From a virus (Duplodnaviria > Heunggongvirae > Uroviricota > Caudoviricetes), in the IMG/VR virus record IMGVR_UViG_2944808559_000001, positions 1-23,108 of that record: 23,108 bases of DNA; one strand, written 5' to 3'. Under the pieces are notes generated by a model that saw only the letters and a list, made by a program, of their open reading frames with translations, was not told the DNA's origin and ran no database searches. Positions 3,987 through 23,108 of this stretch are shown in pieces (positions within the stretch are counted from its first letter, which is position 1; each line of letters begins with the position of its first letter). The position numbers and the translations under genes were made by a program.

Positions 3987-4017
3987 CCAAGCCGCGCGAA
4001 CCATCCGCCGGACATGA

Positions 4018-4149: not shown

Positions 4150-4180
4150 GACGGCTCCCCTAGAGGGGGCCGTTCGTCTT
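4150..4180. terminator. GC-rich hairpin followed by GTCTTT on the + strand
   Basis: GACGGC-T-CCCC-TAGA-GGGG-GCCGTT stem-loop between convergent transcription units. Confidence 0.45.
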
Positions 4181-4240
4181 TACGAAGTCGATGATCAGCC
4201 GGATCATCTGGCCAACGGCGTGGATCGCGATGATGATCAT
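4160..4240 (-). CDS. Candidate 26-aa amphipathic peptide MIIIAIHAVGQMIRLIIDFVKTNGPL
   Basis: ATG 4240 to TAG 4160, below the length cutoff of the ORF track. The frame is open upstream to an ATC at 4300 that follows GGGGGTGA at Shine-Dalgarno distance. Confidence 0.35.
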   Translation of the reverse strand: MIIIAIHAVGQMIRLIIDFVKTNGPL

Positions 4241-4265
4241 GTTCGTGCGCTCATCGGACTTCCGC

Positions 4266-5111
4266 TTACGTGGCCTCCACGACCATTTCTTCTTCTTGAT
4301 CGTTTATCACCCCCTCTCCTGACGAGCCGGCCTGCAGCCGACGGGTGCCGGGGGCATGACGGAACGGGTCCGCCAGCTTGTAGGTATTCGCCAAGGTGTA
4401 CCCCATGGGGGCGTTCGGCGCCTTGATGTGCCGTTCTCGAACCTCTACCAGTCCGAGATTCCGTAGCTCCCGATAGCCTCGTTCTGCGGTATCGGGAGAC
4501 CAGCCGTACCACTCCGGGAATCTCTCGGAGGGGACCGAGGACCAGGCCGGGAGTGTCATGAGGACCAGCAGCATGACCAAGCCGGGCAGCTTCAGTCGAG
4601 CGTCCAGCTCTTCGGTCCAAAAGTCGTGGTGCAGCTGGAGGTAGCCATCCTTATTCCCGGCGCCAGGCCTGGTGTATGGCTCGCCACTTCCGTCTTCTTT
4701 CAGCAGAGTCGCAGCCACCTCCTTCCGGCCGGGTCTCTTCACCTCAATCAGCGCACGCCGTTCGAGCCGGTCGAAGACCTTGGCCGCCGAACCCAAAGCT
4801 GCCGCCCATGTGGATGTGCCTGACGTCGTCCCGAAGCAGCGCGCCCACACGTGCGGGTCCAACCTGGTGGTCCAGCCATCCGAGTTCTCCGCGCTGGTGA
4901 GGGCGAGGATGAACAAATAGCTCAATAGACCACGGTGATCGCCGTTGCGCGCGAAGGTGGCCAGCACGCTGGAGCGGGTCTCCGAACCTCTGGGCTTCTG
5001 CACGAAGCCCCAGCGCAAAGGCACTGCCCTGCGAGTGGCCCTCGCGAGGTAGTGGAGCCTCGTCTCATGGGGAGTGGCCGCGAACGACGGCTGCGGGTCG
5101 GTGCTGTGCAT
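4266..5111 (-). CDS. Hypothetical protein, putative tandem winged-helix DNA-binding protein
   Basis: Two helix-turn-helix-wing-like segments (AAKVFDRLERRALIEVKR and PDTAERGYRELRNLGLVEVR). The start is ambiguous (ATG 5111, ATG 5129 or 5147). The fold call is inference. Confidence 0.65.
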   Translation of the reverse strand: MHSTDPQPSFAATPHETRLHYLARATRRAVPLRWGFVQKPRGSETRSSVLATFARNGDHRGLLSYLFILALTSAENSDGWTTRLDPHVWARCFGTTSGTSTWAAALGSAAKVFDRLERRALIEVKRPGRKEVAATLLKEDGSGEPYTRPGAGNKDGYLQLHHDFWTEELDARLKLPGLVMLLVLMTLPAWSSVPSERFPEWYGWSPDTAERGYRELRNLGLVEVRERHIKAPNAPMGYTLANTYKLADPFRHAPGTRRLQAGSSGEGVINDQEEEMVVEAT

Positions 5112-5191
5112 GCCACAAGTAAACGGCATACCAAATGCCCGGAGCAACCGAAATGGTGATCCCTATGAAGGCGTTTCAGCGGGTGCTTTGA

Positions 5192-5251
5192 CAGACCTAT
5201 GCCATACCTAATGCAAGAACCCCTGGTAGAACCGGTGAGAGAACCAACCAG
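5192..5251 (+). repeat. Short direct repeats: AGAACC x3 at exact 12-bp spacing, preceded by ACCTA(A)TGC x2
   Basis: AGAACC at 5216, 5228 and 5240; CAGACCTATGC and CATACCTAATGC immediately before. Confidence 0.55.
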
Positions 5252-5347
5252 TACGCAATCGGGCGCGCACGTCTCACTGGACCAGCGCAACGAAACCGTC
5301 GCTACGGAGACAGCTGCGCCCAATGGCCCAACCCCGAGCGCGCGGAG

Positions 5348-5382
5348 AGCCCCCATCCCGCTGCAACACGGGGATGGGGGCT
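5348..5382 (-). terminator. Probable terminator of the late/lysis operon
   Basis: Perfect 12-bp stem AGCCCCCATCCC/GGGATGGGGGCT just downstream of the holin stop. Confidence 0.7.
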
Positions 5383-5400
5383 TCCACGCCGGCTTTGGAG

Positions 5401-5658
5401 CTACCGCTGATCGAGTGGCAGGTCATGTCGGGCGGTGTGCTTGGCCACGTACCCCGCCGCGTACGTGATCAGGCCGGGCAGCAGCGGAACCGCGAGCGAC
5501 TCCGCCCAGTCGGGCAGGAAGGAGATGAGGTCGAGGTCGGCGTTGACGGCCTGCAGGACGGTCAGGACCGCCAGCAGGCCCAGGTAGGAGCCCGCGGTGG
5601 CCGCGGTGACCTTCCGCTCGACCGGCGGCTTGCTGTAGCTGATGGGCTCTCCGTGCAT
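5401..5658 (-). CDS. Putative holin (85 aa)
   Basis: GGAGGAAGCC-ATG at 5658. Sequence PVERKVTAATAGSYLG..., two hydrophobic segments and C-terminal GYVAKHTAR, in the lysis cassette. The longer 173-aa call in the ORF track is probably an upstream artefact. Confidence 0.75.
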   Translation of the reverse strand: MHGEPISYSKPPVERKVTAATAGSYLGLLAVLTVLQAVNADLDLISFLPDWAESLAVPLLPGLITYAAGYVAKHTARHDLPLDQR

Positions 5659-5731
5659 GGCTTCCTCCAATAAGGGTCCGGACATGCGAAAGCGCCCACC
5701 CATCTGGGCGGACGCCGTGGTGTCGGTTCGA

Positions 5732-6229
5732 TCAGTTGCTCTCGTCAATCCACCCCGGCAGGCGGCCTTCCAGGCAGCCGGGGGCCTGCCACAGCGTGCG
5801 GCCCACCCGTTCGACGGCGTCGTTGGAACGCGGCCGGGAAGGACACGACCAGCCGCCGCGCGGCGCTCGCACCGCGACCGGCTCCCACCCGGACGCCCGC
5901 AGCGACGCACCATCCTCGTCATCGCGCGTATACGTGATCATCCGCTGGTAGCCAAGCGCCCGCCCGGCCCGCCAGGCCGCCCCGTATAACAGGCTGCAGG
6001 CGTTCGGGGTGCCGTCCGTGGCCAGCCTCGTCACCTCCAGCACGCGGCCGGTGTCGTAGTGGCGCGCGACCGGACGCCCAACGATCGCCACCCCGACCAG
6101 AACCCCCTCGATCGCGGCGCCGACCGAGAACTTGTGGCCGATCGGCGGCCGCAAGTGCCGGTGCACGCCGGCGACGAACGCACACGCCTGCCCGAAGCTC
6201 ACCGGCACGAGCTCCAGCCCGCCCCTCAC
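5732..6229 (-). CDS. XF1762-family protein (GNAT/Mom-like fold inferred)
   Basis: GTG start overlapping the endolysin stop (GTGA). Motifs AFV..HRH..P.GHKFS, GVAIVGRPVAR, LEVTRLATDGTPNACSLLYGAAWRA, GASLRASGW. Confidence 0.8.
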   Translation of the reverse strand: MRGGLELVPVSFGQACAFVAGVHRHLRPPIGHKFSVGAAIEGVLVGVAIVGRPVARHYDTGRVLEVTRLATDGTPNACSLLYGAAWRAGRALGYQRMITYTRDDEDGASLRASGWEPVAVRAPRGGWSCPSRPRSNDAVERVGRTLWQAPGCLEGRLPGWIDESN

Positions 6230-8338: not shown

Positions 8339-11107
8339 TTAGTGGCGGTGGGCCCAGAAGTAGATGGCGAAACTCGTCGCGTTGGCCAGGTTGACCTGGA
8401 AACCTTCCGTGGTGGACGCCGTCAGCGCCCACGCCTTGGGCGTGTAGGTGTTGCCGAAGGCGTCCGGGCCCCCGCTGCCGCCGTCGCGCAGGGTCACGAC
8501 GGGGCCCATGTTGGTGGCCATCGGCGTCAAGTTGCCGGGCGGCCCGTACCGGTAGCTGGCCCAATGCGGCGTCGAACCGCCGCCGATGCTGAAGCTGCCG
8601 GCGGCGAAGGCGTCGTACGGCGAGGTCTCGTTGGCGTCCCAGACGCGGCCGCGGATAAAGAACCGGCCGCTCGAGTTCAGGAAGATGTAGGTTTCGGAGT
8701 TCGATGAGCCGGTCGAGTAGCCGAACTGGGCGTAGTCGTCAGCGATGTCCAGGCCGCCACCCCGCTGGCTGCCGTTGCTGTTCTGCATGCCGAGCCGGAT
8801 CAGGGTGGAGTCCACCTGGAGCTCGGCGCGCTGCGAGCTGCTGGTGTTCGTGGTGATGTAGATGGCGGCCTCGCCGCCGGAGTCCTGCGAGTAGATGCGC
8901 GAGTAGTTGCTGCCGCCTGCGGGGTAGAACCGCAGGTCAAGCGTGCTGGAGTCCAGCACGAAGCGACGACCGGTCGGCGAGCTGCGCACGATGCTGCCGG
9001 TGATCGTCTTACCGTTGATCGCGTCCGCCGCGATCGTCTGTGCCGTGACGGAGCCTGCGGCCAGCTTGTCGGCCGTGATCGCCGCGGCGGCCAGGTGGCC
9101 GGTCTGGATGGCCCCGGCCTCGATCTTGTCGGCGGTGATGGAGTTGGCGTTCAGGTGGCCGGCGTTGATGGCGAGCGCCTGGATTAGGGTGCCGGTGATC
9201 GTGTTCGCGGTGATCTTGGCGTTGGCCGGGATGCTGCCGTCGATCACGTGCTCGGCCCCGTCGATCACCTGCCCGATCAGGTCGGTGTCGACCAGCGGCA
9301 CCACGGCCGCGACGACCCGAGCCGACTCCCCACTGACGTTGCCCGACCTGTCGAGCGCGACCAGCCAGAACTCCCTGTCGCTGTTGTACGGCAGGCCGGG
9401 CACCACGGCGGTCCCAGCCCGCTCCAGCCACTCCACCTGCGTGCCGTCGTCCTCGGCATCGAGCGGGTCGCGCATCATGACGAGCGCTCGGTGGAAGTCG
9501 GTCGGCATGCCGGTGCCCGAGCTGGTCAGGCCGTCCCAGGTGACGCGCACGATCCCGAGCCGGGAGTCGACGACCGGCGTGGACGGGCTCGGCGGCGGCC
9601 CCTCATCGTCCGGGATCGTCAGGACCGGCGACGTCGCGAGCAGTCCCTTGGTGCCCTGGTTGGTGGCCCGCACCCCGAACCGCCACTGCGTCTTCGGCTC
9701 CAGCGGACTGTAGGAGATGCTGGTGCCGTCGGTGTGGCCGAGCACCCGTTCCGCGCCCGTGCCCGGCGGCGTCTGCCCGATCAGCTCGTACCCGTCGACG
9801 GACAGGGCGACGCCGTTCTCGTCCGTCGAGACGGGCAGCCATGACACGGTGATCAGGCCGTGGGCGTAGCCCTCCGCGTCGAGGTACGCCTGCGGGTCCA
9901 CGATCAGGCCGGTCGGCGCGGCCGGTACCCGGTCCTTGCTGTCGGGAGCCGGTTCGCCGCCGTTACCGCCCTCGGTCACCCCGCCCGACAGGATGCCGTT
10001 GGCCCGGCGCGAGATCCTGATGTCGCGTTCGAGGAACCGGTCGTTCAACACCAGGTTGCCGCCGATCACGCCTTCGGCGTCCACCGTCAGCGTGATCTGC
10101 CGGATCCGCAGCCCCTGCATGACCGCCTGGTCACCAGGGGCGCGCACGGTGTCGCCCACCCGGTAGTCCCGCAGCGGCAGGAATCGGGCCGCGTAGGGCG
10201 TGATCTGCCGGGTGAGCTGCACCCGCTCCCCCGACGCCCGGTCGAGCGCGTACCGCGCGAGCATCCGCGCGGTGCCCTCGTCCTTCACCCCGCCCTGCGA
10301 TTGGTACGTCTCCCACCGCCCCCATGGCCGCACCGCCACTGGGTTGGTCACCTCGACGGACAGGCCGTCCTCGCCGGTGATGAGGATGGCCGAGGCCGCG
10401 TCCTCGAACGTCGCCTCGTCCGGAGCCTGTTCGATGTCCCGGCCGAGACGCAGCTCGACGGGCGCGGGCCCGGACCCGAACTGGCGGCCGAGGGTGGTGT
10501 TCTCGTTGAAGATTTGCAGCGTGCGGCCTTGTATCTGCCAGTCGCAGACGCCCTGCTCAGCGAGGTTGATCAGCACAGCGAGCAGGTCCGTGCCGGGGTC
10601 GAGGCCGAGTGTCAGCGTCGCCGCCCACGGCTGGCCCGCGGAGTCCTCGAACGCGTCGAAGTCGTAGTCGAGGCCGGGCAGCGTACCGCGGCTGCGCGCC
10701 TCGTCGATCATCTGCGACACGATGTCGCCGACAGTGGTGGCCGGGAACTGGCGCTTGCCGTCGATCATGCCGATCGACGGGTACAGCACGAGCTTGCGGA
10801 GCTGCCAGGCGTAGCCCGGCAGATCGTAGGAGCGGGTCAGCGCGTGGTCGGCGTTGTCGCCGGACCGCTTGATCCGCAGATACCGGCCGTTGGCGGGCTC
10901 CACCCAGGTGCCGCCGGCCGACCACTCCACCGCGACCTCGCACGGGGAGGCCAGCCAGGTCGCGCCGGCCGCGTGCCCGGAGTACGTCAGTCGGAGGCTC
11001 GGCGTGTCATTCAGCGGCATCGCCGCCTCGAATCCGAGGTGCTGCCCGAGCACGCCGAGACGCGCCCCGTTCGGGGCGTAGGCCACGAGCCGCAGGCCGT
11101 ACCGCAT
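8339..11107 (-). CDS. Tail-tip protein 2 (Tal/hub-like N-domain, FN3-like domains, fibre repeats, divergent C-terminus)
   Basis: Paralogue of 11755-14502. Contains PAAPTGL and PPPSPSTP FN3-like starts and ITADKIEAG/ITADKLAAG repeats. The start is 11107 (matches the paralogue N-terminus) or 11134. Confidence 0.88.
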   Translation of the reverse strand: MRYGLRLVAYAPNGARLGVLGQHLGFEAAMPLNDTPSLRLTYSGHAAGATWLASPCEVAVEWSAGGTWVEPANGRYLRIKRSGDNADHALTRSYDLPGYAWQLRKLVLYPSIGMIDGKRQFPATTVGDIVSQMIDEARSRGTLPGLDYDFDAFEDSAGQPWAATLTLGLDPGTDLLAVLINLAEQGVCDWQIQGRTLQIFNENTTLGRQFGSGPAPVELRLGRDIEQAPDEATFEDAASAILITGEDGLSVEVTNPVAVRPWGRWETYQSQGGVKDEGTARMLARYALDRASGERVQLTRQITPYAARFLPLRDYRVGDTVRAPGDQAVMQGLRIRQITLTVDAEGVIGGNLVLNDRFLERDIRISRRANGILSGGVTEGGNGGEPAPDSKDRVPAAPTGLIVDPQAYLDAEGYAHGLITVSWLPVSTDENGVALSVDGYELIGQTPPGTGAERVLGHTDGTSISYSPLEPKTQWRFGVRATNQGTKGLLATSPVLTIPDDEGPPPSPSTPVVDSRLGIVRVTWDGLTSSGTGMPTDFHRALVMMRDPLDAEDDGTQVEWLERAGTAVVPGLPYNSDREFWLVALDRSGNVSGESARVVAAVVPLVDTDLIGQVIDGAEHVIDGSIPANAKITANTITGTLIQALAINAGHLNANSITADKIEAGAIQTGHLAAAAITADKLAAGSVTAQTIAADAINGKTITGSIVRSSPTGRRFVLDSSTLDLRFYPAGGSNYSRIYSQDSGGEAAIYITTNTSSSQRAELQVDSTLIRLGMQNSNGSQRGGGLDIADDYAQFGYSTGSSNSETYIFLNSSGRFFIRGRVWDANETSPYDAFAAGSFSIGGGSTPHWASYRYGPPGNLTPMATNMGPVVTLRDGGSGGPDAFGNTYTPKAWALTASTTEGFQVNLANATSFAIYFWAHRH

Positions 11108-11111
11108 CGGC

Positions 11112-11291
11112 TCACCCGGAACGATCACCTGCATGCGCTGTCCCCTCTCGCTGCTTGAGCTGGGCCTGGAGCTGGTCGACCGCGACGGCCAGGACCGCGT
11201 TCTCGTACGTCAGCTCATCGATGCGTCTGCGCAGGAACGCCACCACGGCGTTCGGGTCCACGTGCAGGTCTTCATGCGAGTCGTCGGTCAT
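11112..11291 (-). CDS. Small coiled-coil phage protein (59 aa)
   Basis: ATGA overlap with the upstream gene; MTDDSHEDLHVDPNAVVAFLRRRIDELTYENAVLAVAVDQLQAQLKQ; GC-rich third codon positions. Confidence 0.7.
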   Translation of the reverse strand: MTDDSHEDLHVDPNAVVAFLRRRIDELTYENAVLAVAVDQLQAQLKQREGTAHAGDRSG

Positions 11292-11755
11292 GCGCTCCCC
11301 AGCAGATGCCGGTCGATCGCCAGCCGGATGGTGGCCACCCGCACCGGGTCGATACGCACGCGATCGCGCAGCGCCTGCAGCGGATCGGCCGCAGCTTGCG
11401 CCGACCGGCCGGAAGCGGCGGCGGGCGCATCGGTGAGGACCTGGCCGTACTGCTCCCGGCAGGCCGCGATCTGCCCCTGCAGCCGGGCCCGCGCCGAGGC
11501 CGCGTCCCCCTCCAGCCGGACCTGCGCATCCGGGTCGCCGTCGGCGTGCATCCACGACAGCAGCGGCTCGTACAGCAGCGCCTCGATCACCTCGTCGAGG
11601 GACGTCAGCCCGTGCTCGGCCATGCGGTGCTCGAAGGCTTCCTTCGGGAAGCTGGCGGCGACCGTGCCCCCGTCGCCGTCGACCGGCTCGTACAGGAACG
11701 TCCACGCGTCCGGTCCTTCTTCGACGTGGGTGATCCGCCAGGTACGCACGCCCAT
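11288..11755 (-). CDS. Tail-tip partner protein 1 (hypothetical, possible assembly chaperone; 155 aa)
   Basis: TGATG overlap with the tail-tip 1 stop (MGVRTWRITH...); paralogous to 7647-8327. Confidence 0.75.
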   Translation of the reverse strand: MGVRTWRITHVEEGPDAWTFLYEPVDGDGGTVAASFPKEAFEHRMAEHGLTSLDEVIEALLYEPLLSWMHADGDPDAQVRLEGDAASARARLQGQIAACREQYGQVLTDAPAAASGRSAQAAADPLQALRDRVRIDPVRVATIRLAIDRHLLGSA

Positions 11756-14502
11756 CACGCTCCATGTTGTCGCCAGGCCCACACGTACAGCAGCGTCGTG
11801 AAGTTGGTGGGCGTCGAGGTCTCGTGTGATCGCAGGGTGAACCCGGTCGTGCTGGGCGAGGTGACATGAAGCACCAGGCGAGCCGGGATCGGGTTGTCGG
11901 CGGTGATCAGCACGCGCGGCGCGGACTGGAGCGTCACGATGAACGAGACGAAGTGCGATGCCGCCGCCGTGGTGAGGTTGCGGGAGAACATGACCAGGCC
12001 CGCAGCGGACTCGTAGTTGAAGGTGCCCCGGAACGCCGTGTAGCCCGTGGCGCTTCCGGCGCCGCCGTTGTTGAACAGCCACCGGTTCAGGCGGCCCGCG
12101 GTGTCGTTGTAGCCGACCTCGAGCTGGTTCGGCTGCGCGAACATGTAGCCGCCGCCGGCGAGCCCATCCGCGGTCTGCACCATGTGCATGCGCCACTCGT
12201 CGCCGCGTTGGATCACCTCCGAGCGGCGCGTGCCGTCCGTGCTCGTGCCGGAGTACAGCCGGATCGCGGCCTCGGCGTCGGTCCAGATGCGCGCGTAGTT
12301 CGTGCCGGTCCCCGGCATGAACCTGATCTCCGGATCAGCCGCGCCCGCAGGGTTGACGATGATCCGGCGGCCGGTCACGCCCGTCGCGAGCTGCCCGACG
12401 ATGCTGACCGCGCCGGACGTCGACGAGATGGACACGGTCTGCACAGAGGAGGCGTTGTACGCCTCCAGACCGCTGGCGTTCAGCTCCACCCGGGCCCCGG
12501 CCGGAGTGCCAGCCACGATCCGGGTTGAGAGCGTCAGGACGGCTTCCAGCTTCGCCGCGGTGACCTGCTCGGCGGCGATGTGCCCGGCGAGGATCTGTCC
12601 GGCGGCGATCTTCGCTGACGTGATCGCGTTGGCCACGATCGCGCCCGTGGTGATCGACTCGTCGGCGGCGTCGCCCTGGACGAGCTGCACCGCGGCGATC
12701 GTCGCCGTCGCGCTCCGCGCCGAGGCATTCCCCGAGCGGTCGACGGCGGTGAACGAGAACTCCCTGTCGGCGCCGTACGGCAGGCCGGGCACGACGAGCG
12801 ACCCGGCCGCGTCGAGATACCCGATCTCGGTCCAGCCCGGCGCGAGCGGGTCCTGCATCCAGACCAGGACATGCAGCAGGTCGGACGGCATCGGTACCGC
12901 CCCGACGCCCAGCCCATCCCACGTCACGTGCACGACACCGAGCCGGGACTCCAGCGCCGGGGCGGTCGGCACCGGCGGCGCGTCCGTGTCGTCCGGGATG
13001 GTGACGGCCACGGACGACGAGAACGGCCCGCGCTGGCCGAGGTTCACCGCCCGGACCTTGAACTGGTACTGCTGCCCGACCACCAGCGGACTGAAGGTGG
13101 CGTTGGTGTCGGCGGCCTCCGTCGCCGTGATCAGGAACCACGGCGCGCCTTCCTCGTTGATGCGTGCGAACAGCTCGTAGCCGCCGATGACGAGCGCCAC
13201 GCCGGCCACGTCGGTGGTGACCGCGCCCCACGTGGCGGTCACCTGCCCGCGCGGCAGGCCGTGCTCGTCGAGGTAGGCGAGCGGGTTCACGATCAGACCG
13301 GCGGGTGAGGCCGGGGTGCGCGGAGCCGGTGACTCCGGCGCCGGTCTTGCTCCGGATCCGCCCTCGGCGGTGGAGCCGCCGACGATGCCGGCCGTACGGC
13401 GGGACAGCCGCAGGTCCCGCTCCAGCAGCCGATCGTTCAACACGACGTTGCCGCCGAGGACGCCGTTCTTGTCGCGGGTCACGGTGAGCTGCCGGACCCG
13501 CATGCTCTCCATCGCGCCGCCCGCAGAAGGGGCGAGGACGCGATCCCCTGGCCGGTAGTCGCGCCAGGGAAGCCAGCGCGCGGTGTACGGGGTGATCTGG
13601 CGGGTCCGCTGGATGCGCTCGCGCCCGGAGCGCAGCAGCACCGCTTCGGCGAGCAGCTGCGCGGTCCCCGGGTCGGAGACGCCGCCCTGCCCGATGTAGG
13701 TCTCCCACCGCCCCCACGGCGCGGATGCGCTGCCGTTCGTGTACGACGCGCGGAACCCGTCTTCGCCGATCACGAGGGCCGCGCTGGCGAGGTCCTCGAA
13801 CGTGCCCACGTCCGGGGCGGCGACGACGTCGCGGCCGAACCGCAGATCCACCGGCGCGTCCCCCGCCGCCAGGTCCCGCGCGAGCTCGGTGTCGGCGTTG
13901 AACACCTGCAGCGTCCGCCCCTGCATGCGGAAGTCGCAGACGCCCTGCTCGGCGAGGTTGATGAGCGTGGTGAGCGCGTCGAGGCCGGGACGGTAGTAGA
14001 TCGTCAAGATCTTCGCCCACGGCTCGCTAGCTGAATCGTGTGTCGGAGTGAAGTCCCAGTCGAGCGCGGGCAGCGCGCCGCGCGCCTGCCCCTCCTGCAG
14101 GAACGTCTGCAGGATCGCCCCCGGCATCGCGGACAGGAACGCCCGCTTGCCGTCGACCAGCGGAGCAGCGCCCGGGTAGAGGATCACCTTGCGCAGCATC
14201 CACACGTACCCGGGCAGCTCGTACATGGCCAGCCCGGTCTCGTCCACCTGGTCGGCCCGACGCCGGATCAGCAAGAACCGGCCGTCGCTCGGCTCCGTCC
14301 ACGCCTGTCCGTCTTCCGACCATTCGACGGCGACCTCGACCGGCCCGTCGAGGAGCTCCGCGTTCAGGGCCCGCGTACTGTAGGACAGCTTCAGCGCGGG
14401 CACGTCATTTAGCGGGCATGCGACGTCGACCATCAGTGGTTGAGGGACAACGCCAAGACGGACTCCGAACGGGGCATAGACCACTAAGCGTAGTTCAGTC
14501 AC
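11755..14502 (-). CDS. Tail-tip protein 1 (Tal/hub-like N-domain, FN3-like domains, fibre repeats, divergent C-terminus; 915 aa)
   Basis: Lies downstream of Dit. Shares LINLAEQGVCD, PWGRWETY, TRQITPY and LNDR.LERD with its paralogue. Contains ITSAKIAAG/VTAAKLEA repeats. Confidence 0.9.
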   Translation of the reverse strand: MTELRLVVYAPFGVRLGVVPQPLMVDVACPLNDVPALKLSYSTRALNAELLDGPVEVAVEWSEDGQAWTEPSDGRFLLIRRRADQVDETGLAMYELPGYVWMLRKVILYPGAAPLVDGKRAFLSAMPGAILQTFLQEGQARGALPALDWDFTPTHDSASEPWAKILTIYYRPGLDALTTLINLAEQGVCDFRMQGRTLQVFNADTELARDLAAGDAPVDLRFGRDVVAAPDVGTFEDLASAALVIGEDGFRASYTNGSASAPWGRWETYIGQGGVSDPGTAQLLAEAVLLRSGRERIQRTRQITPYTARWLPWRDYRPGDRVLAPSAGGAMESMRVRQLTVTRDKNGVLGGNVVLNDRLLERDLRLSRRTAGIVGGSTAEGGSGARPAPESPAPRTPASPAGLIVNPLAYLDEHGLPRGQVTATWGAVTTDVAGVALVIGGYELFARINEEGAPWFLITATEAADTNATFSPLVVGQQYQFKVRAVNLGQRGPFSSSVAVTIPDDTDAPPVPTAPALESRLGVVHVTWDGLGVGAVPMPSDLLHVLVWMQDPLAPGWTEIGYLDAAGSLVVPGLPYGADREFSFTAVDRSGNASARSATATIAAVQLVQGDAADESITTGAIVANAITSAKIAAGQILAGHIAAEQVTAAKLEAVLTLSTRIVAGTPAGARVELNASGLEAYNASSVQTVSISSTSGAVSIVGQLATGVTGRRIIVNPAGAADPEIRFMPGTGTNYARIWTDAEAAIRLYSGTSTDGTRRSEVIQRGDEWRMHMVQTADGLAGGGYMFAQPNQLEVGYNDTAGRLNRWLFNNGGAGSATGYTAFRGTFNYESAAGLVMFSRNLTTAAASHFVSFIVTLQSAPRVLITADNPIPARLVLHVTSPSTTGFTLRSHETSTPTNFTTLLYVWAWRQHGA

Positions 14503-14686
14503 ATCAAGCCCTGTTTTGTTGATTGGCCACTTTTGTCACAAAGGACTCGCTCGGGCGTCGCTACTGCGCACAGAACGTATCGCCGAAACCCCTCGCAAAG
14601 AAGTCTGATGCTGGCTATCTTGGCCGTCGTGCAGATCGACCAGAGGATGGCCTTGGCGGCACAAGAGATCAAGGTGACGAAGAGGT

Positions 14687-15091
14687 ATGAGCGTGCGAAT
14701 AAGGGAAAGCAATCGGGACTTGCCCAGTCCACTGCTGATTGCCGTATCGGAGCTCATGATTCTCCGCGCCCTAGAGCTTGCAGGGAAGCGAATACCACCA
14801 CGTCGAGGCAACCGCTCGCTGCGAGCGATCTACCAAGACGTCCCCCCATGGGAAATTCACACCATCTTTCCAGCACGGGCTGATGAGTTGGATAAGCTCC
14901 TAGCTAACGCCTGGACGCTTCCGCTTAATATCGGAGTTCCCGCATCGCTAGTGGAGACATTAGACGTGCACGCCAGGACGCTCTTGGTCGCGGGACTCGC
15001 ATTCGCCCGAGGCGACCTGTGCCTGACACTCTCGCAAATGTCTTTTGATGAAGCCGAACTGCCATGGCTCTTGCCTCGACCACTGGCCTAG
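14687..15091 (+). CDS. Hypothetical protein (134 aa) in an opposite-strand insert
   Basis: ATG preceded by purine-rich AAGGTGA..GAAGAGGT; protein-like helical sequence ELMILRALELAGKRI; AT-richer codons including TTA at 14960. Confidence 0.6.
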   Translation: MSVRIRESNRDLPSPLLIAVSELMILRALELAGKRIPPRRGNRSLRAIYQDVPPWEIHTIFPARADELDKLLANAWTLPLNIGVPASLVETLDVHARTLLVAGLAFARGDLCLTLSQMSFDEAELPWLLPRPLA

Positions 15092-15201
15092 TTGGCTGAT
15101 CAGAAGCTTCCCGCCCCATGACGCTACGGCTCTCCTCAACAAAAGTTAAGGCTCTCGCGAATGCCGCATAGGGCCTAAACGGCAGGACATAAGAGGGAAC
15201 T

Positions 15202-16164
15202 ATGATCGCACCCCACGCCCCCACCTGCGTTCTTTGTGGAGCCCCGCATGCTCGGGCAGAACACGTCTGGACTCGCCGACTTGCCCAGTATCAGCAGAGG
15301 CTCTCCCCGGGGGCCGGATTTACCGCTGACCTGATCATGGCGGACCTTGGGCGTCGACCACTCCGAAGCGCTAACGGACAGCGTTGGACACATCCAACAT
15401 TCCCACACGTGACCGTGCCCGCATGCGAGGACTGCAATAAATGGTTGAACGATAACTTCGAGCGCCCTGCACATGCGGCAATCACAAAAACACTCGACGA
15501 ATGTGACGTTCCTCTAACCTATGCTGAAACGACAGCGTTGGCGCGATGGCTAGGAAAAACATCCCTTTTGCTTCAACACCAAGAAGCCAAAGGCATTGTT
15601 CCCGGCGACGAGGATCGCCGCCAAAGAGACTGCTGGGAAGTGGCTACAAGACTTGTTCGAGAGCTACGGAGGGGAAGTGAACTGCCCGACGACCTTTCTA
15701 TCTGGATGGCGCGGGCCGATGACACGGACGGAAACGCCGAGCTTTCGACTTCGCCGCGAATCTACCTACCCACAACGAGCGGCACTGGTGGCCTCGGCGG
15801 AGAAAGTGTCGCCACCTCATTCGGCATAGGCATGCGCAGCGGGGCAATGCTATGCGTCCAGGTGGCTTACCACCCTCTCGTTGATATAGCGCATCCTTTT
15901 GAGGGTTCCCGCTTTGCGATACGCCTGTGGCCTGACCCTCCAGCGAAATTTAACATTCGGAATCTGCCCAGACTATCCACGGTGGGGCGGCGGCAATTCA
16001 ACAGCGTCTTTGTCCGTGGAGCTGGGCACATTACCCTTCCCCTTCCAGACGAACGTGTGACCTGCCGCCCGGATGTGGACCCTCTCATGGATTTCTGGAC
16101 TCATTGGGGCCGCTCCATGCCAGTAGATGAACAATCACCCGAGACTGGAAGCGATCATGAATGA
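15202..16164 (+). CDS. HNH-like zinc-finger protein with an uncharacterised C-terminal domain (320 aa)
   Basis: AAGAGGGAACT-ATG start. CxxC..AEHV and CxxCN..LN..FE motifs of the treble-clef HNH class; visibly lower GC than the flanking phage genes. Confidence 0.7.
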   Translation: MIAPHAPTCVLCGAPHARAEHVWTRRLAQYQQRLSPGAGFTADLIMADLGRRPLRSANGQRWTHPTFPHVTVPACEDCNKWLNDNFERPAHAAITKTLDECDVPLTYAETTALARWLGKTSLLLQHQEAKGIVPGDEDRRQRDCWEVATRLVRELRRGSELPDDLSIWMARADDTDGNAELSTSPRIYLPTTSGTGGLGGESVATSFGIGMRSGAMLCVQVAYHPLVDIAHPFEGSRFAIRLWPDPPAKFNIRNLPRLSTVGRRQFNSVFVRGAGHITLPLPDERVTCRPDVDPLMDFWTHWGRSMPVDEQSPETGSDHE

Positions 16165-16282
16165 CATGCGGTGAACACCCTACTTGGTGTTCGTGGCACT
16201 CACATGAAGCCGAGAAGATCGGACGACTGGCAAGTTCTCGTGAAGAAGCAACTCGCCTGCAGGCAATGCTAAGTCTGCGCTA

Positions 16283-17152
16283 TCACTGGAAAGAACGGCG
16301 GGCCCGGATCTCCAGCTTGGACGCCGCCGTGGTGGAGGTGGCCGCCGCGGTGACGAGCACCGCGCGGGAGTGCGGGTCGCCGACCGCCACGGACGGGGTG
16401 AGGTGCAGCCACCGGAACGCCGAGCCAGGGCCGGTTGCGGCAATCTGGCCAGTCACGTCCGTCCCTGCGGTCATGTCCCACGTGTCGGTCGTCACCAGGC
16501 GGGCCCGCATCTGCCCGCAGTCGATGAGCAGCCGCTGGCCAGCGGACAGCCCGGACGAGCGGGAGACGGTGCCTCCGGTGGCCACGTCGGTCACGGCCGG
16601 GTTCACAGCCGGGCCGGTGACGCGCACCACCGCGTCGGTGATCGGAGCGGTTGAGCCCGCGAGCGTGGTCACCAGCTGGTCGGCGGCGTTGACGGCCCCG
16701 GACCAGGTGGTGTCGAACAAGTCGCGCCAGTACACGCCCGGGATGCGCATCACGGCCGTCAGCCGGGCCATGGCCGCGTCGGTGTTGATCTCCGGCTCGC
16801 TGATCCCGTCGAGGATGACGTCGGCCTGCCGGACGACGGTCCCCGCGACGAAGGTGAGCTTCATCAGCCGGTGCTTGACGCCGAGCACCGCGCCGAGCGC
16901 TTCGAGGTTGTGCTCCATCTGCTCGTACCCGCCCGGCGCCCCCGAGGGGGTGCGGCCGTACACGGTCAGCACGAGCGGCATCGTCGTCGTCTCATGATCG
17001 AGCCCGAGGATGGGCAGCTCCCCCGCCCGGCCGGGCACCTTGACCTCGACCTGTCGCAGGCCCGGAAGAGGCCTGCGCTTGGTGCCCTTCTTGAGTCGCC
17101 AGCACCCGGCAGGATGGTCCAGGGCGACCCCGTCGAGCAGGTACGTCGGCAT
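16283..17152 (-). CDS. Distal tail protein (Dit)-like (289 aa)
   Basis: Directly after the TMP; size, beta-rich sequence, VPGRAG N-terminal motif and basic RARR C-terminus are typical of siphovirus Dit. Confidence 0.8.
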   Translation of the reverse strand: MPTYLLDGVALDHPAGCWRLKKGTKRRPLPGLRQVEVKVPGRAGELPILGLDHETTTMPLVLTVYGRTPSGAPGGYEQMEHNLEALGAVLGVKHRLMKLTFVAGTVVRQADVILDGISEPEINTDAAMARLTAVMRIPGVYWRDLFDTTWSGAVNAADQLVTTLAGSTAPITDAVVRVTGPAVNPAVTDVATGGTVSRSSGLSAGQRLLIDCGQMRARLVTTDTWDMTAGTDVTGQIAATGPGSAFRWLHLTPSVAVGDPHSRAVLVTAAATSTTAASKLEIRARRSFQ

Positions 17153-17317: not shown

Positions 17318-19603
17318 CTACAGCACGCCCAGCATCCCGGCATAGGCGAGGCCGCGGTTGACGGTCTCGCTGGTGGTCTCGGCGGCCGGGTTGATCGTGG
17401 TGACGTGGATGTTGACCCCGGCCGTCCGGTTCGGGCCCACGCCGCCGGTGACGATGCGGCCGGTCGAGCCGATATGCGCGGCGAGCTCCGGCCGGAACGA
17501 CGCCTCCAAGTCCCCGGCGATGCGTGAGGCGGTAGCCAGCACCGTACGGGCCGAGGTTTGCATGCCCTGCGCCATGCCGAGCATCGTGAACTGGCCGATC
17601 TCGGCGAACACCGTCGACGGGGAAGCGATACCGAGGGCCTGCCGCACCCAGTCCGGCATGATCCCCTGGAAGAAGTTGTAGATCATGTCGCGGAACCACG
17701 CTCCGGCCGCGACGATCCCGTTCCACAGCCCGACCAGCAGCTGCCAGCCGAGGTTGTCGACGGCGACGAGGAAGTCGAGGATGCCGCGCCCGGCCGTGGC
17801 CAGCGCGCCGATGAAGTCGCCGGTCAGCAGCAACGCGACCGCCCGGACCAGCGTGATCAGCGGCGGCAGCAGCGCGGTGACGAGCTGCAGCAGCGGCGGC
17901 AGCACCGGCAGGATCGCCGGGAGCAGCTGAGCGAAGGAGCTGATCAGCGCGAGCAGCTGCGGCGACAGGTCCACCAGGGCCTGCAGGAGGACCTGGCCGA
18001 TCTGACCGGCGACCTGCGCGATCAGCGGCAGCAGCGGCCCGAGCACCGGGACCAGCCCGGTCACGAACTGCGCGACCAGCAACGCGAGCTGCGGCAGCAG
18101 CGGCGCGATGGCCGGGATGAGCGTGTTGACGACCAGGACGGCGAGCGCGCCCAGCAGCGGAAGAACCGGCTGGATGGCCAGCAACGCGAGCGAGAACGCG
18201 GAGACCAGCAGGTTCAGCGACGGCAGGACGGCTTGCACGCCGGCCGCGAGGACCTGCGCGACGAGGGAGGCCAGCTGCCCGATGACGGGCAGGAGCGGCG
18301 CCGCCGCGACCATGATGGCCGAGATGGCCTGCGCGATCGGCACCATCGCGGGCGCGACCGCCGCGGCGGCCACGCCCAGCGCGGCGAAGACTGCCGAGAT
18401 GCCGGGGAACAGCGCGGCCAGCGCGGGCACCACCGCCTGGATGGCGGCGGTGAGGATCGGGCCGAGCTGCACCGCCAGCGCCGCCACCAGCGGCGCGAGC
18501 ATGCCGACCCCTTCGGCGACGGCGACGAGAGCCGGAGCGAGCGCGGACGCCATCTGGCCGAGCGACGCGAACACCGACGTGAGGGCGCGCTGCCCGGCCA
18601 TGCTGTTCACCCAGGCGTTGACCCGGTCGAGGATCGTGCCGAGCACCCCGAGCGCGTCCCCTCCGGCGGCACGCACCGCGTCGAACACGCCGGAGAAGAT
18701 CTGCCACACGTCCGCAGCGAGTGAGCCGAGCTGACGCAGGACGAGGACGGCGTCCTGCATCCAGCCGAGCGCCCGGCCGGATTCGGCGGCCGCGGTGAGG
18801 AAGTCCCCGAACCGGACCGCGAGCAGCGCCAGCTCGGGGGCAAGCCCGGCCGCGAACTGGGCGCCTACGGTGGTGATGCGGGTCAGGCCGGTCAGCACCG
18901 GATCGATCGCGACCGCCAGGGCGTCGACGGCGAAGCGCAGCGACGCGAACACCGTGGCGATCGCCGCCACAGCGGTGTCGGAGCGAGCGAACTCGGCGAC
19001 CCGCGCCGCAGCTCGGCCGAGTGCGTCCGCGACCGAGCTCATGCCGATCGCGACGGGCCCCAGCAGCACGTCGGCCAGCGCGGTGAGCTGGCCGAGCAGG
19101 AGGGTGAACAAGCTGTCTTGGACGAGGTTCCGCAGGCCCAGCAGCACCGGCCGCAGGGCACGCAGCTCCCTAGCTGCGCTCTGAGCGGCCCCAGACAGGC
19201 CCTTGATCGCTTCCTCGAACTTCTGTTCGTCTTCCCCCAGCGCGGCCGTGAACGCGTCCTGGACCCCGTACAGGGCCACCGACAGGGTCGCGATTCCGGC
19301 TGCTCCGAGCGCGGCCACTCCGGGCAGAGCCGCGACGAGCCCGACAGCGGGAGCGAGCGCCGCCCCCAGCGAGACGACGCCGTTGGCCAGCGCGCCGGCC
19401 GCGGCCGACATCAGCGCCATCCGGGCGGCGGTGGTGACGATCGCGGCGCCCATCTGCACGACCGAGGCGGTGACCTGGTTGGTCGAGCCGCGGAAGGAGA
19501 TGGAGGCCCGCTGGGTGGTGTCGAGCGCCCGGGTGAGCCGCGTGGCGAACGACTGATCTCGCAGGTCCAGGGTGATGAACAGCTCGCCCACGTTGATCGC
19601 CAC
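17318..19603 (-). CDS. Tape measure protein B (761 aa)
   Basis: Start GTG 19603 after CAGGAGGT gives (M)AINVGELFITLDLR. Ala/Leu-rich helical Pro-periodic repeats, LGIASPSTVFAEIG motif, and position before Dit. Confidence 0.92.
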   Translation of the reverse strand: MAINVGELFITLDLRDQSFATRLTRALDTTQRASISFRGSTNQVTASVVQMGAAIVTTAARMALMSAAAGALANGVVSLGAALAPAVGLVAALPGVAALGAAGIATLSVALYGVQDAFTAALGEDEQKFEEAIKGLSGAAQSAARELRALRPVLLGLRNLVQDSLFTLLLGQLTALADVLLGPVAIGMSSVADALGRAAARVAEFARSDTAVAAIATVFASLRFAVDALAVAIDPVLTGLTRITTVGAQFAAGLAPELALLAVRFGDFLTAAAESGRALGWMQDAVLVLRQLGSLAADVWQIFSGVFDAVRAAGGDALGVLGTILDRVNAWVNSMAGQRALTSVFASLGQMASALAPALVAVAEGVGMLAPLVAALAVQLGPILTAAIQAVVPALAALFPGISAVFAALGVAAAAVAPAMVPIAQAISAIMVAAAPLLPVIGQLASLVAQVLAAGVQAVLPSLNLLVSAFSLALLAIQPVLPLLGALAVLVVNTLIPAIAPLLPQLALLVAQFVTGLVPVLGPLLPLIAQVAGQIGQVLLQALVDLSPQLLALISSFAQLLPAILPVLPPLLQLVTALLPPLITLVRAVALLLTGDFIGALATAGRGILDFLVAVDNLGWQLLVGLWNGIVAAGAWFRDMIYNFFQGIMPDWVRQALGIASPSTVFAEIGQFTMLGMAQGMQTSARTVLATASRIAGDLEASFRPELAAHIGSTGRIVTGGVGPNRTAGVNIHVTTINPAAETTSETVNRGLAYAGMLGVL

Positions 19604-19650
19604 CGTCTCCACCTCCTGTGGGGTCCCGAATGAGAGGTGGAGACGGCGAC
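19599..19650 (-). promoter_or_regulatory. Hairpin that sequesters the TMP-B ribosome-binding site and start codon
   Basis: Perfect 13-bp inverted repeat CCGTCTCCACCTC (19603-19615) / GAGGTGGAGACGG (19634-19646), extendable to 17 bp with two G-U pairs on the minus-strand RNA. Confidence 0.65.
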
Positions 19651-19677
19651 AACGACCAGGGGGCCCGGGGGCGGGCG

Positions 19678-22600
19678 TCAGACCAGGCCGAGCACCGAGG
19701 CGTACTGCAGCCCCTTGTTGACCGTCTTGCTGGTGGGTTCGGCCTGGGGGTAGTTGTTCGTCACGTTGACCACGGTCTGGTTACCGGCCCGGCCGCCGAC
19801 CATCCCGGGGGTGAGCGTCGCGGCCGGCTTCGGCGTGAACACCTTGGTCAACTGGCCCGCGACCCCAGCCGCCTTGGCGAGCATCTTCGGCGCGGCCTCG
19901 ACGATGCCGTTCTCCAGACCGGACATGGTGAACGCGCCGATCTCGGCGAAGATCTGCGATGGCGACTTGATCTTCAGTGACTTCTTGATCTGGTTGACGA
20001 GCGCGTTGGCGATGTCGCGCATCGCCGCTTCGATCTGCTTCTTCTGCGAGACGATTCCGGCCAGGAAGCCCTTGCCCGCGTTTTTCCCGGCGTCGAACAT
20101 CGCGTCGGCGGCGGCCTTCCCGGCATCCTTCGCAGCCTTCTCGATCATCCCGTAGGTGCTGTTGATCGACTTGAAGGTGGACGAGTCCGCCTGCAGGATC
20201 GCCTGCCCCAGCTCGTTACCGGCCTCAGGCCCGGCCTCGATGATCTGGCTCAGCAGGCCCTTCGACAGGCCGCGCGCGGCCAGCTTCTTGATCGTGTTGG
20301 CCCAGGACTTGATCAGCGCGAGCCGCGACTTCAGCCCTTCCTGGATGCCTTCCGCGCTGGCGGGGTTCTGCTCGTTGAACCCCATGTTCGACAGGTTCGC
20401 GAACTGGCGGGTCTGGTCGCCGATCTGCTTGGCGTACGCCATCGCGTCAGCGATCGTCTTGACGATCGCCTCTCGCTCCTTGGCGAGCTTGGCCAGCTCG
20501 GTGTTGCCGGACCGGATCGACTCGACCAGGTGGTCCTTCACCCCGGCCGTGATCCTGCCGGACTGGAAGGCGTTCACCACGGCGTCGACCATCCGGCCGG
20601 CCGTGTCCTTGATCTTGGACTCTTCTCCTTGAAGGCCGAGCACCCAGCCCTTGGCCGTGTCGGAGCCGACCGCCGCCATCACCTTCGACGGCGAGCTGAT
20701 GCCGAGGAGCCGCTTGATCCAGGAGATGAAGCCGGAGAACAGGTTGCCGACGGAGGAGGTGAAGGAGTTCCAGGCGTTGACGAACCCCTGCTTGATGCCG
20801 TTGACGAGGTCCGCGCCGAGAGTCCACAACTTTTTGAAGGCGGCGGTGATGGTGTTGCCGAACTGGGTGACCCCGTTCTTGATCGTCTCCCACGCGCCTT
20901 GGAAGTCGCCGGTGAGGACCTTGGCCAGGGCGGTGACGATGCTGATGACCAGCGGAATCACCGACGAGCCGAGCTGGATCAGCGGCGGCAGGACCGGCGT
21001 GATCGCTGAGACGATCTTGGTGAAGATGGTCGCGAGGTTGAGCAGGATCGGCGACAGCGCCGTCACGAGCTGCACCAGCGGCGGCAGCAGCGCCGTGGCG
21101 AGCTGCATGATCGGCGGCAGGATCGGCAGGATCGCCGTGATCAGCTGACCGAAGATCGTCGCGAGCTGCGTGAAGATCGGCGACAGCTGCATGATCGCCT
21201 GCTGGATGGCCTGTCCGAACAGGACGGCCATCTGCGAGATCGGCGGCAGCAGCGGCGTGATCGCGCCGACGAGGATCGTGATCGCCTGCACCAGGACGCC
21301 GCCGAGCGCGGCGGCGATCTGCCCCACCACGGGGATCAGCGGAGTGATCGCCGGGACGAGCCCGGTGATGAGCTGCGCGGCGAGCTGCGCGATCGGCGGG
21401 ACGAGCGGCAGCAGCGCGATGACGAGCTGCCCGAACGCCTGCGCGATCTGACCGATCACCGGCCGAAGCTGCGTCAGGACCGGAGCGAGCGACGTGGTGA
21501 CGGTCTGCCCGACGCGCACCAGGACCGGCGCCAGCGCGGTCGCGAAGGTCGCGACGAGCTGCAGAACCGGCGGCAGCAGCGGGATCAGCGCCGCCGCGAG
21601 CTGCGCGAACGACCCCATCAGGCTGCCGATGCTCGGGCCGAGCTGCGTCAGGACCGGCGCGAGCTGCGCGGACAGCGTCTGCGCGATCATCGTCAGCCCG
21701 GACATGAGCGGCCCCGCTAGCGATCCCGCTAGCCCGACAACCGCGCCGAGCAGCGGCCCCATCGCCTGCAGGAGACCACCGAGACCGGTCATCAGCGTGG
21801 CCAGCAGGCCGGAATTCTCCGACAGCGCGGCCGAGATCGGAGCCATGAATCCGGCGAGCTGCCCGCCGAACTGGCCCAGCGACCCGGCGACCTGCGACAG
21901 CATCGGCACCACGGCCGCGACGACACCCTGGATGGCGGGCAGCATCGGCCCGAGGAAATCGCCAAGACCGGCCGTGAACTGCCCGATCAGCGGCGCGATC
22001 TGAGCGAACATGCCCTGCAGGGCGGGCGCGATCTGCGTCGAGAACATCGTCTTCAGCGACCCGGCCGCCTGCGCGAGCGGCCCCTCCAGCACGGACGCGG
22101 CCTGCGCCAGGTCCGCCTGGACGGACTTCTTCAGGTCGGCGAAGGCGGCCTTGACCTTGGCCGACTCCATCGCGGCCTTGATGCCGATGACCGCGATCCC
22201 GGCCGTGATCCCGGCGAACACCCCGGCCAGCACACCGCCAGCTCCGACGCCGGCGGCGCCCATCCCGACGAGCGCTGTGCCGGCCTTGTTGGCCATGCCG
22301 AGGACCATCGGCGTGGAGGTGAGCGTCGCGGACCCGAACTGGGTCAGGCCAGTCGTCATGGTGGTGAGCGCGCCGCGCACGGTCAGCGACGAGATACGCA
22401 CCAGCCCGGACGTGGCCTGCCACGCAGTGGAGATGCGCCGCAGGTTCGTCACCACCTGCGACAGCTGGTTGTAGGCGGAGGTGACGCGGTTACGCATCTC
22501 CTCGCTGTCAGCCCACAGCCCGCGCATCCCGGCCGCGACGCCGGCGAACGCGGCCGCGGTGCGGGCGCGCATGGCGTCGACGCCCCGGCCGATCAGGCTC

Positions 22601-23108
22601 ATGGCCGCGCTGACGACGAGCCCGACAGGGGAGAACGCGAGCAGCGACGCCCGCGCGGCCGACATCTCCCCCGTGATGACCTTGCGTACGACGATCACGG
22701 CGGCGGCGAGCAGCGCCAGGACCGCGATCACCTTTAGGAACGAACTGGTGGAGCCGGACTCGAACAGGCGGGCCGCGAGTCCCATCGACCCCATCGCGGT
22801 GCCGAACACGCTGGAGACCGCGGACATCTTCGAGATCGCGCCGGACAGGCCGCCGAGACTGGTCAGCAGGCCGCGCACGACCTCGCCGAACCGGGTCCCG
22901 GACAGGACGGCGTTGAGCGCCATCTCCGCGAGATGCAGCGCCGCCTCCTTGGCCGCGGAGGCGATCGCCTGCCCCATCGCGGTCCCGGCGGCCCCCATCG
23001 CGTCCATGACGGCCGCGAACACCGGGCTCGCGGCGCGGGCCTTGGCGATCGCCGAAGACAGGCCGCTGGCCACCTGCTCCCGCAACTCCAGGCTGATGAA
23101 CAGCTCGC
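19678..23108 (-). CDS. Tape measure protein A (>1142 aa; 5' end just outside the window)
   Basis: The frame is open to the window edge and reads ELFISLELREQVA, matching the TMP-B N-terminus. Pro-periodic helical repeats, LGISSPSKV and LKIKSPSQIFAEIG motifs, and a C-terminus homologous to TMP-B. Confidence 0.92.
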   Translation of the reverse strand, partial: ELFISLELREQVASGLSSAIAKARAASPVFAAVMDAMGAAGTAMGQAIASAAKEAALHLAEMALNAVLSGTRFGEVVRGLLTSLGGLSGAISKMSAVSSVFGTAMGSMGLAARLFESGSTSSFLKVIAVLALLAAAVIVVRKVITGEMSAARASLLAFSPVGLVVSAAMSLIGRGVDAMRARTAAAFAGVAAGMRGLWADSEEMRNRVTSAYNQLSQVVTNLRRISTAWQATSGLVRISSLTVRGALTTMTTGLTQFGSATLTSTPMVLGMANKAGTALVGMGAAGVGAGGVLAGVFAGITAGIAVIGIKAAMESAKVKAAFADLKKSVQADLAQAASVLEGPLAQAAGSLKTMFSTQIAPALQGMFAQIAPLIGQFTAGLGDFLGPMLPAIQGVVAAVVPMLSQVAGSLGQFGGQLAGFMAPISAALSENSGLLATLMTGLGGLLQAMGPLLGAVVGLAGSLAGPLMSGLTMIAQTLSAQLAPVLTQLGPSIGSLMGSFAQLAAALIPLLPPVLQLVATFATALAPVLVRVGQTVTTSLAPVLTQLRPVIGQIAQAFGQLVIALLPLVPPIAQLAAQLITGLVPAITPLIPVVGQIAAALGGVLVQAITILVGAITPLLPPISQMAVLFGQAIQQAIMQLSPIFTQLATIFGQLITAILPILPPIMQLATALLPPLVQLVTALSPILLNLATIFTKIVSAITPVLPPLIQLGSSVIPLVISIVTALAKVLTGDFQGAWETIKNGVTQFGNTITAAFKKLWTLGADLVNGIKQGFVNAWNSFTSSVGNLFSGFISWIKRLLGISSPSKVMAAVGSDTAKGWVLGLQGEESKIKDTAGRMVDAVVNAFQSGRITAGVKDHLVESIRSGNTELAKLAKEREAIVKTIADAMAYAKQIGDQTRQFANLSNMGFNEQNPASAEGIQEGLKSRLALIKSWANTIKKLAARGLSKGLLSQIIEAGPEAGNELGQAILQADSSTFKSINSTYGMIEKAAKDAGKAAADAMFDAGKNAGKGFLAGIVSQKKQIEAAMRDIANALVNQIKKSLKIKSPSQIFAEIGAFTMSGLENGIVEAAPKMLAKAAGVAGQLTKVFTPKPAATLTPGMVGGRAGNQTVVNVTNNYPQAEPTSKTVNKGLQYASVLGLV

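Follow-up and report, generated by a model that had tools for sequence, protein, structure and literature searches.

Two tandem tape-measure paralogues, probably both functional, in a siphovirus prophage lineage of the Streptosporangiaceae

The tape measure protein (TMP) is the textbook single-copy protein ruler of the phage tail, and it also opens the path of the DNA through the host envelope. The DNA considered here, referred to as the window, comprises bases 1-23,108 of an 88,665-bp IMG/VR provirus (IMGVR_UViG_2944808559_000001; 68.5% G+C, CheckV completeness 97%), a siphovirus-type prophage of a Nonomuraea-type actinobacterium, and it carries two diverged genes in tandem, TMP-A and TMP-B, in the position of the tape measure. 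Sequence comparison with related prophages makes it rather likely that these are two functional tape-measure paralogues, derived from an old duplication of a single TMP gene within a lineage of siphovirus prophages of the Streptosporangiaceae. Such a conserved tandem pair is unusual, as a single TMP gene is found both in the sister prophages and in the closest cultured relative, and no published description of tandem TMP genes in siphophages was found by a full-text literature search of incomplete coverage.

Anatomy of the Two Genes

Both genes are on the minus strand, which holds nearly all the real genes as judged by third-position G+C. A preliminary description of this DNA, made from the letters alone, had reported two tandem tape-measure open reading frames of about 1150 and 761 amino acids (aa), and this reading is borne out: TMP-A extends over 19678-23124 (19678..23108 within the window) and encodes 1148 aa, and TMP-B extends over 17318..19603 and encodes 761 aa. 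The start codon of TMP-A, a GTG at 23122-23124, is located 16 nt past the window end in the full record, with GGAGG 9 nt upstream and an in-frame stop codon 11 codons upstream (23158-23160), which rules out that the gene is broken upstream of the window. For TMP-B, the first GTG proposed by the open reading frame finder (19612) was rejected because it overlaps the Shine-Dalgarno (SD) sequence, and the GTG at 19603 was used instead; this start is backed by the source gene call P0123 (761 aa), and the TMP-B orthologues all begin M/V-A-I-N-V-G-E-L-F.

The near match between the ends of the two proteins, already noticed in the preliminary description, amounts to 13 identical residues among the first 17 and 14 among the last 23, and identity over the final 111 residues is 42% (E 2e-19). 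The C-terminal motif occurs in family-specific variants, YPQAEPTS..GLQYA in A and NP.AE.TSETVNRGLAYAGMLGVL in B, and all A orthologues, like the single TMPs of related prophages, conserve the end motif YPQAEPTS.TVN.GLQYA. With an SD sequence and start codon, an N-terminal motif and a C-terminal module of its own, each is a complete tape-measure gene, as had been proposed. The possibility of one split TMP gene was rejected: both open reading frames have both end motifs, they overlap in homology, and the single TMPs of sister prophages align with TMP-B alone.

The SPS motif occurs once in TMP-B (residue 661, codons 17615-17623) and twice in TMP-A (residues 811 and 1054, codons 20686-20694 and 19957-19965), and the charged helical domain said to separate the two copies in TMP-A was recovered as a stretch of 243 residues, 20-28% of them charged and almost all of them helical in an AlphaFold2 (AF2) prediction. 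This model covers TMP-A residues 796-1148 and was built on 31 homologues; its mean pLDDT is 69.5, with values above 90 over about 80 residues. The charged helical insert itself corresponds to residues ~850-1040 (20005..20577), and the C-terminal anchor module, from the second SPS motif to the end, to residues 1038-1148 (19681..20013). At the other end of TMP-A, an optional N-terminal module containing a hydrophobic segment occupies residues ~18-260 (22345..23073).

The two genes had also been described as having different bodies, and this holds in part only. The N-terminal ~350-470 residues and the TMP-A inserts are unrelated between the two proteins, but the bodies are otherwise partly homologous, since in a profile comparison TMP-A 472-843 aligns with TMP-B 391-713 (E 5e-73, 34% identity). 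From these alignments, the parts common to TMP-A and TMP-B are a 17-residue N-terminal motif, half of the hydrophobic core and a C-terminal module of ~110 residues. The hydrophobic cores are uncharged (residues 351-700 in TMP-A and 351-600 in TMP-B, with 0-4% charged residues), and autocorrelation detects the same two repeat lags, 29 and 43, in each of them, which hints weakly at compatible helical packing.

Evidence That Both Genes Encode Tape Measures

The canonical single TMP of siphophages, such as lambda gpH or 80alpha gp57 (PDB 6V8I/9MU2), is encoded between the G/GT tail assembly chaperone (TAC) and the distal tail protein (Dit), and it is this interval that TMP-A and TMP-B together fill. 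On one side lies the TAC gene (23315-23782, minus strand; PHROG 3860, E 3e-36), preceded by the gene of the tube-forming major tail protein (MTP; 23786-24253, minus strand); on the other, a single Dit gene (16283..17152, minus strand; PHROG 33, E 5e-7) is found immediately downstream of TMP-B. In most relatives the Dit orthologues (289 aa) likewise adjoin the TMP gene or genes downstream, directly or past a short gap. The TAC gene has a T extension in the -1 frame of ~100 (99) codons, ending just before the TMP-A start, and a candidate slippery heptamer in correct phase, G_GGC_CCG, at codon 112 (record 23441-23447); the heptamer is conserved in the related loci L046, L047 and L078, and the other relatives are without a strict XXXYYYZ. 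This -1 extension with its phased heptamer points to one G/GT chaperone serving the locus.

Homology is in agreement with position. Among the PHROG families annotated as TMP, 13 are matched by TMP-A (best E 1e-49) and 11 by TMP-B (best E 3e-63), and the SPS-containing region of each protein aligns within residues ~919-1111 of the 1154 of 80alpha gp57 (E 9e-6 for TMP-A and 6.5e-6 for TMP-B), the match of TMP-A running through its first SPS motif. Further PDB matches are FtbJ for TMP-A and, for the N-terminal domain of TMP-B, the TMP gp16 of 8ZDO. A tblastn search with TMP-A matched 887 phage records, and all 25 of the matches listed lie under annotated TMP genes of actinophages. Like canonical tape measures, both proteins are long and mostly alpha-helical with a hydrophobic core, to judge from the uncharged cores of both and from the helices modelled for TMP-A 796-1148. 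Unlike them, they come as two diverged tandem paralogues, have no muralytic domain and reach no Pfam TMP domain (e.g., PF10145, PF20155); TMP-B is without any Pfam family, and the sole Pfam match of TMP-A, PF04513 (Baculo_PEP_C), sits on the low-complexity hydrophobic repeat core and was not taken as meaningful.

At E <= 1e-5, 222 of the candidates scored are homologous to the C-terminal module of TMP-A (SPS, helical insert, SPS, end). Most come from Streptomyces and Streptosporangiaceae, and many are in proteins with PF10145 or muralytic domains; PF20155 occurs among them too. By these matches, the module is a common C-terminal architecture of actinophage TMPs. A Foldseek comparison of its AF2 model with the PDB gave no match at E <= 0.001, only generic helices.

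Recurrence and Selection in Related Prophages

Searching TMP-B against 251 genomes of the family retrieved 20 loci; no related locus was found by a search with TMP-B in viral contigs, and megablast of the region against cultured phages gave no match. Tandem TMP genes between chaperone and Dit are present in 12 of 12 further loci, which derive from one IMG/VR provirus, seven Nonomuraea genomes (one of them a complete chromosome), Spongiactinospora, Streptosporangium, Microbispora and Sphaerisporangium, that is, five genera of Streptosporangiaceae. Since it recurs in 12 independent assemblies, including the complete chromosome, the tandem arrangement first seen in a single record is genuine; the same pair is shown by adjacent locus tags in N. 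wenchangensis and in Nonomuraea sp. NPDC049421. The pair is intact in 11 of the 12 loci, at identities down to ~45%. The remaining locus, L053, is visibly degraded, with A truncated to 464 aa and B frameshifted.

Pairwise dN/dS values for close pairs are 0.18-0.37 for A and 0.10-0.37 for B, comparable to those of MTP and Dit, and are approximate only, as the strong codon bias (GC3 ~0.93) compresses dS. They indicate purifying selection on both genes. It could be argued that one copy is a decaying redundant duplicate, or that the pair is an artefact of assembly or annotation such as a split gene, and L053, where both copies are damaged, demonstrates that decay can happen. Against this stand the open reading frames of 2.0-3.9 kb kept intact in the 11 other independent assemblies, the dN/dS values of both genes, which are well below 1, the A and B clades that each mirror the phage backbone (see below) and the alignment of single TMPs with B alone. 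The spacer between the two genes, 33-137 nt in the relatives, varies moreover in length and in relative frame, which leaves no room for a fusion product made by read-through or frameshifting. Decay or artefact is thus very unlikely and already largely refuted.

The two families differ in how their lengths behave. Across the tandem loci the first gene (A) encodes 653-1283 aa, the lower value being that of N. longicatena, and the second (B) 675-835 aa. The N-terminal module of TMP-A is present in this prophage and in L011, L047 and L048, and absent from L046 and L049-L053; the TMP-A of L046 is 84% identical to the present one outside this module, so that two phages with tube proteins 96% identical have a TMP-A of 1148 vs 928 aa and a TMP-B of 761 vs 760 aa. 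A 94-residue repeat block of the TMP-A core and the charged helical insert are both missing from L049-L052, where the two TMPs are almost equal in length (A 653-660 vs B 675-694 aa). Measured as the distance from the N-terminus to SPS, the A and B lengths covary positively by eye across seven lineages, too few points to count.

Single-TMP Relatives and the Origin of the Pair

Six of the retrieved prophages (L058-L063) have orthologous major capsid protein (MCP; 61-73% identity), tube, chaperone and Dit genes and one TMP instead of two. The single TMPs of L060-L063 (746-791 aa) align with TMP-B from end to end; they share its end motifs and are 39-40% identical to it over 746-791 aa. A single TMP of 972 aa is present in L058 and in L059 (Planomonospora alba). 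By MCP, the nearest cultured phages are Streptomyces phage Hiyaa and its relatives, with 64% identity along the entire protein. These Hiyaaviruses (Hiyaa, Galactica, Keanu, Spocter) resemble the present prophage in genome size (81-83 kb) and in the order of the structural genes, but differ from it in having a single annotated TMP, gp21 (941 aa), and a different set of tail-tip genes.

The gene phylogenies called for in the preliminary description separate A and B as distinct families: in the TMP tree the single TMPs are basal and the rest splits, with a support of 98, into two families, A (supported at 99-100) and B, and the single TMPs of L058 and L059 fall in B. In a backbone tree of MCP, Dit and MTP the tandem prophages form a clade with a support of 100, in which L058 and L059 are nested, and the A and B clades of the TMP tree each mirror this backbone. 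The nested position of L058 and L059 makes a loss of TMP-A most likely for them, and the simplest history is one gain of a second TMP gene followed by one loss of TMP-A in these two. A chimeric origin of their 972-aa TMP was considered and is not supported, the protein being B-like at both ends. Trees and alignments together identify TMP-B as the orthologue of the ancestral single ruler and TMP-A as a fast-diverged, modular paralogue with optional modules.

In Microbispora amethystogenes (L079:8001-14095) the two tandem genes (1283 and 733 aa) are both of the A family and none is of the B family; the two-TMP state may have been reached there by another route, or a replacement may have taken place. 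As called, the first of the two L079 genes is without the N-terminal NVGELF motif. L058 and L059 with B only, and L079 with A only, argue that A-type and B-type proteins are each competent TMPs.

A Hairpin Over the TMP-B Start

In the window, TMP-A and TMP-B are separated by a spacer of 74 nt, and a hairpin of 16 bp (19601..19648, minus strand; -32.5 kcal/mol, z -5.2, with 0 of 200 shuffles as stable) places in its 3' arm both the SD sequence of TMP-B, AGGAGG (19612-19617), and its GTG start codon (19601-19603). No comparable hairpin is formed by the start regions of TMP-A, tube, chaperone, Dit and both tail-tip genes (z -0.8 to +1.3). In most of the 12 loci folded, the SD sequence is in a stem of the minimum free energy fold at the same place, with differing arm sequences; the structure is weakest in L051 and L079, and z ranges from -2.3 to -5.2 in seven loci. 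This support comes from single-sequence folds with shuffles and from the start regions of neighbouring genes as controls. RNAalifold on five spacers gave only one compensatory pair under strict covariation counting, because the register of the stem shifts between loci.

The features expected of a throttled or coupled downstream cistron are therefore present, namely SD and start codon in a stem, a conserved position and absence from the neighbouring genes. As in coupling of the MS2 coat-replicase type, the downstream SD sequence and start codon are paired in a stable stem. A stem beginning at the upstream stop codon is the classical arrangement for translational coupling, and in L050-L052 the 5' arm of the hairpin does begin at the TMP-A stop codon. 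In this window the stem begins ~26 nt past the TMP-A stop, so that a ribosome terminating there would not necessarily unwind it directly, and the control is a predicted one. Among the single-TMP orthologues, the SD sequence is found in a similar hairpin in L063 (L063:10635-10689, minus strand, z -3.7) and L061 (L061:8406-8460, minus strand, z -2.1). The hairpin is thus probably an ancestral throttle on TMP synthesis that TMP-B would have kept and that is not found in TMP-A.

Two Proposed Rulers in One Tail Operon

Under the duplication of a single TMP gene favoured here, TMP-B would have retained the body and the length class (675-835 aa) of the ancestral ruler, with its start locked in a hairpin occluding the SD sequence and its translation consequently throttled or coupled to that of TMP-A. 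TMP-A, in the canonical slot directly after the only G/GT chaperone gene and with an open start region, would have evolved fast, gaining and losing the N-terminal module, the 94-residue core repeat block and the charged helical insert. Both proteins keep the N-terminal motif and a C-terminal module of ~110 residues whose homologue in the 80alpha TMP is embedded in the tail tip, and we infer on these grounds that the same chaperone would handle both, that the same Dit-Tal initiator would dock both and that both probably enter tails. Incorporation into the virion, stoichiometry and the identity of the copy that sets the length are likewise inferred. A model with mixed TMP bundles in one type of tail, in which TMP-B would be the minority subunit, is preferred, if only tentatively. 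It is somewhat unlikely, and yet conceivable, that the lineage builds its tails with a two-component ruler in the wider sense, consisting either of A/B hetero-oligomers at a ratio set by the hairpin or of two homotrimeric rulers giving two tail lengths.

Several points weigh against this interpretation, in addition to the approximate nature of the omega values. The unequal lengths of A and B (1148 vs 761 aa) are awkward for a simple parallel trimer, and the hairpin is weak in three loci (z -1.4 in L011, -0.9 in L080 and -0.4 in L079). The stem branch of the A family is long, with 0.9-1.4 changes per site, which makes the placement of A uncertain, and with it the choice between duplication in situ and horizontal acquisition; a second TMP may instead have been acquired, with ends matched to the lineage. 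Finally, from the B-only state of L058 and L059 and the A-only state of L079 it follows that neither type is indispensable, and their roles may overlap or differ from those proposed in the favoured model.

By the rule of thumb of ~0.15 nm of tail per TMP residue, TMP-B would predict a tail of 114 nm and TMP-A one of 172 nm, in line with the roughly 110 and 170 nm of the preliminary description. Since near-identical phages differ in the modules, and so in the length, of TMP-A, a count of residues may not by itself give the tail length. Each TMP might nonetheless form its own homotrimer and nucleate its own tail, giving tails of ~114 and ~172 nm in one lysate, a dimorphism that could be a hedge where envelopes differ in thickness or where factors of entry or exclusion target the TMP. 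Complete end motifs and separate starts in both genes are consistent with such dimorphic tails, the family-specific variants of the C-terminal motif fit self-recognition, and proteins of unequal length are more easily placed in separate tails than in a mixed trimer. Chaperone, Dit and tube, however, are each encoded by a single gene; L049-L052 keep the pair although their TMPs hardly differ in length and would give no length dimorphism; and the throttled start of TMP-B suggests unequal amounts, not two balanced products. Taken together, these points make dimorphic tails quite unlikely.

A related question is whether each TMP might be matched with a tail-tip protein of its own, as the tail-tip genes too are doubled. 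The two paralogous Tal-like or fibre-like proteins (8339-11134, 931 aa, and 11755-14502, 915 aa; both minus strand) are 45% identical over 824 residues, and both are conserved in the relatives. Both are also present in the single-TMP prophages L059 and L061-L063; L058 has one Tal-like paralogue within the retrieved stretch, and in L060 the Tal-like genes are in pieces. The presence of the Tal pair in single-TMP prophages implies that the Tal duplication is older than, and independent of, the TMP duplication. A strict one-to-one match between TMPs and Tal paralogues was rejected, the two duplications not being co-inherited, and by this distribution of genes the idea of two matched tails is weakened.

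The other alternative is that TMP-B alone serves as the ruler and that TMP-A is a TMP-derived accessory, co-loaded or ejected with it, for instance a membrane-channel or pilot protein with swappable modules. This would agree with the orthology of B to the single ruler and its stable length, with the gain or loss of whole modules in A, which ranges over 653-1283 aa and differs even where the tube proteins are 96% identical, and with the loss of A in L058 and L059, where a B-type TMP remained. On the other hand, TMP-A is encoded in the canonical TMP slot, its start region is open and it bears the standard C-terminal module of actinophage TMPs; L079 has two A-type genes and no B-type gene; and if TMP-A is anchored at the tip and is the longer of the two, the tube would be expected to grow along it. 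An accessory role for TMP-A is therefore regarded as unlikely.

Genomic Context and Other Features of the Window

The structural genes follow one another on the minus strand in the order portal, minor head protein, scaffold-like gene, MCP and four connector genes, then MTP, TAC, TMP-A, TMP-B, Dit, a gap of low G+C, the two Tal-like tail-tip paralogues, holin and endolysin. Capsid, portal, tube, chaperone and Dit are each present in one copy in the record, and an all-against-all BLAST of the record yielded three relevant pairs of paralogues, including the TMP pair and the tail-tip pair. The third is another tandem pair on the minus strand, upstream of the portal region (record 32759-33490 and 33507-34232), whose products of 243 and 241 aa are 52% identical.

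The gap between Dit and the first tail-tip gene (14503-16282) has a G+C content of 58-62% and holds plus-strand open reading frames that match neither Pfam nor PHROG, e.g., 15202-16164 (320 aa); the corresponding slot in the relative L048 is filled by ~8.8 kb of other genes, and the gap looks like a hot spot for cargo insertion inside the tail operon. G+C is also lower (60-66%) over positions 1-6000, where plus-strand open reading frames include a PadR-like regulator (2779-3108) and a 478-aa protein (985-2421) matching only an uncharacterised PHROG; these are probably accessory or border genes of the prophage.

Biological Significance

Two rulers maintained by selection behind one chaperone and before one Dit raise the questions of which of them sets tail length, whether TMPs form mixed trimers and whether the pair broadens or protects entry. 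Natural controls exist in the single-TMP sisters, in the relatives with a TMP-A from which whole modules are missing and in the sub-lineage without TMP-A, and the hosts, Nonomuraea and Streptosporangium, are culturable. Close relatives of the prophage are carried, for example, by Nonomuraea sp. CA-141351, N. wenchangensis and N. longicatena JCM 11136. The hairpin occluding the SD sequence of TMP-B offers a handle on how TMP dosage is set. If the two-component ruler is true, a siphophage would have a previously undescribed means of diversifying its tail length, or its device for membrane entry, while the remainder of the tail is not duplicated.

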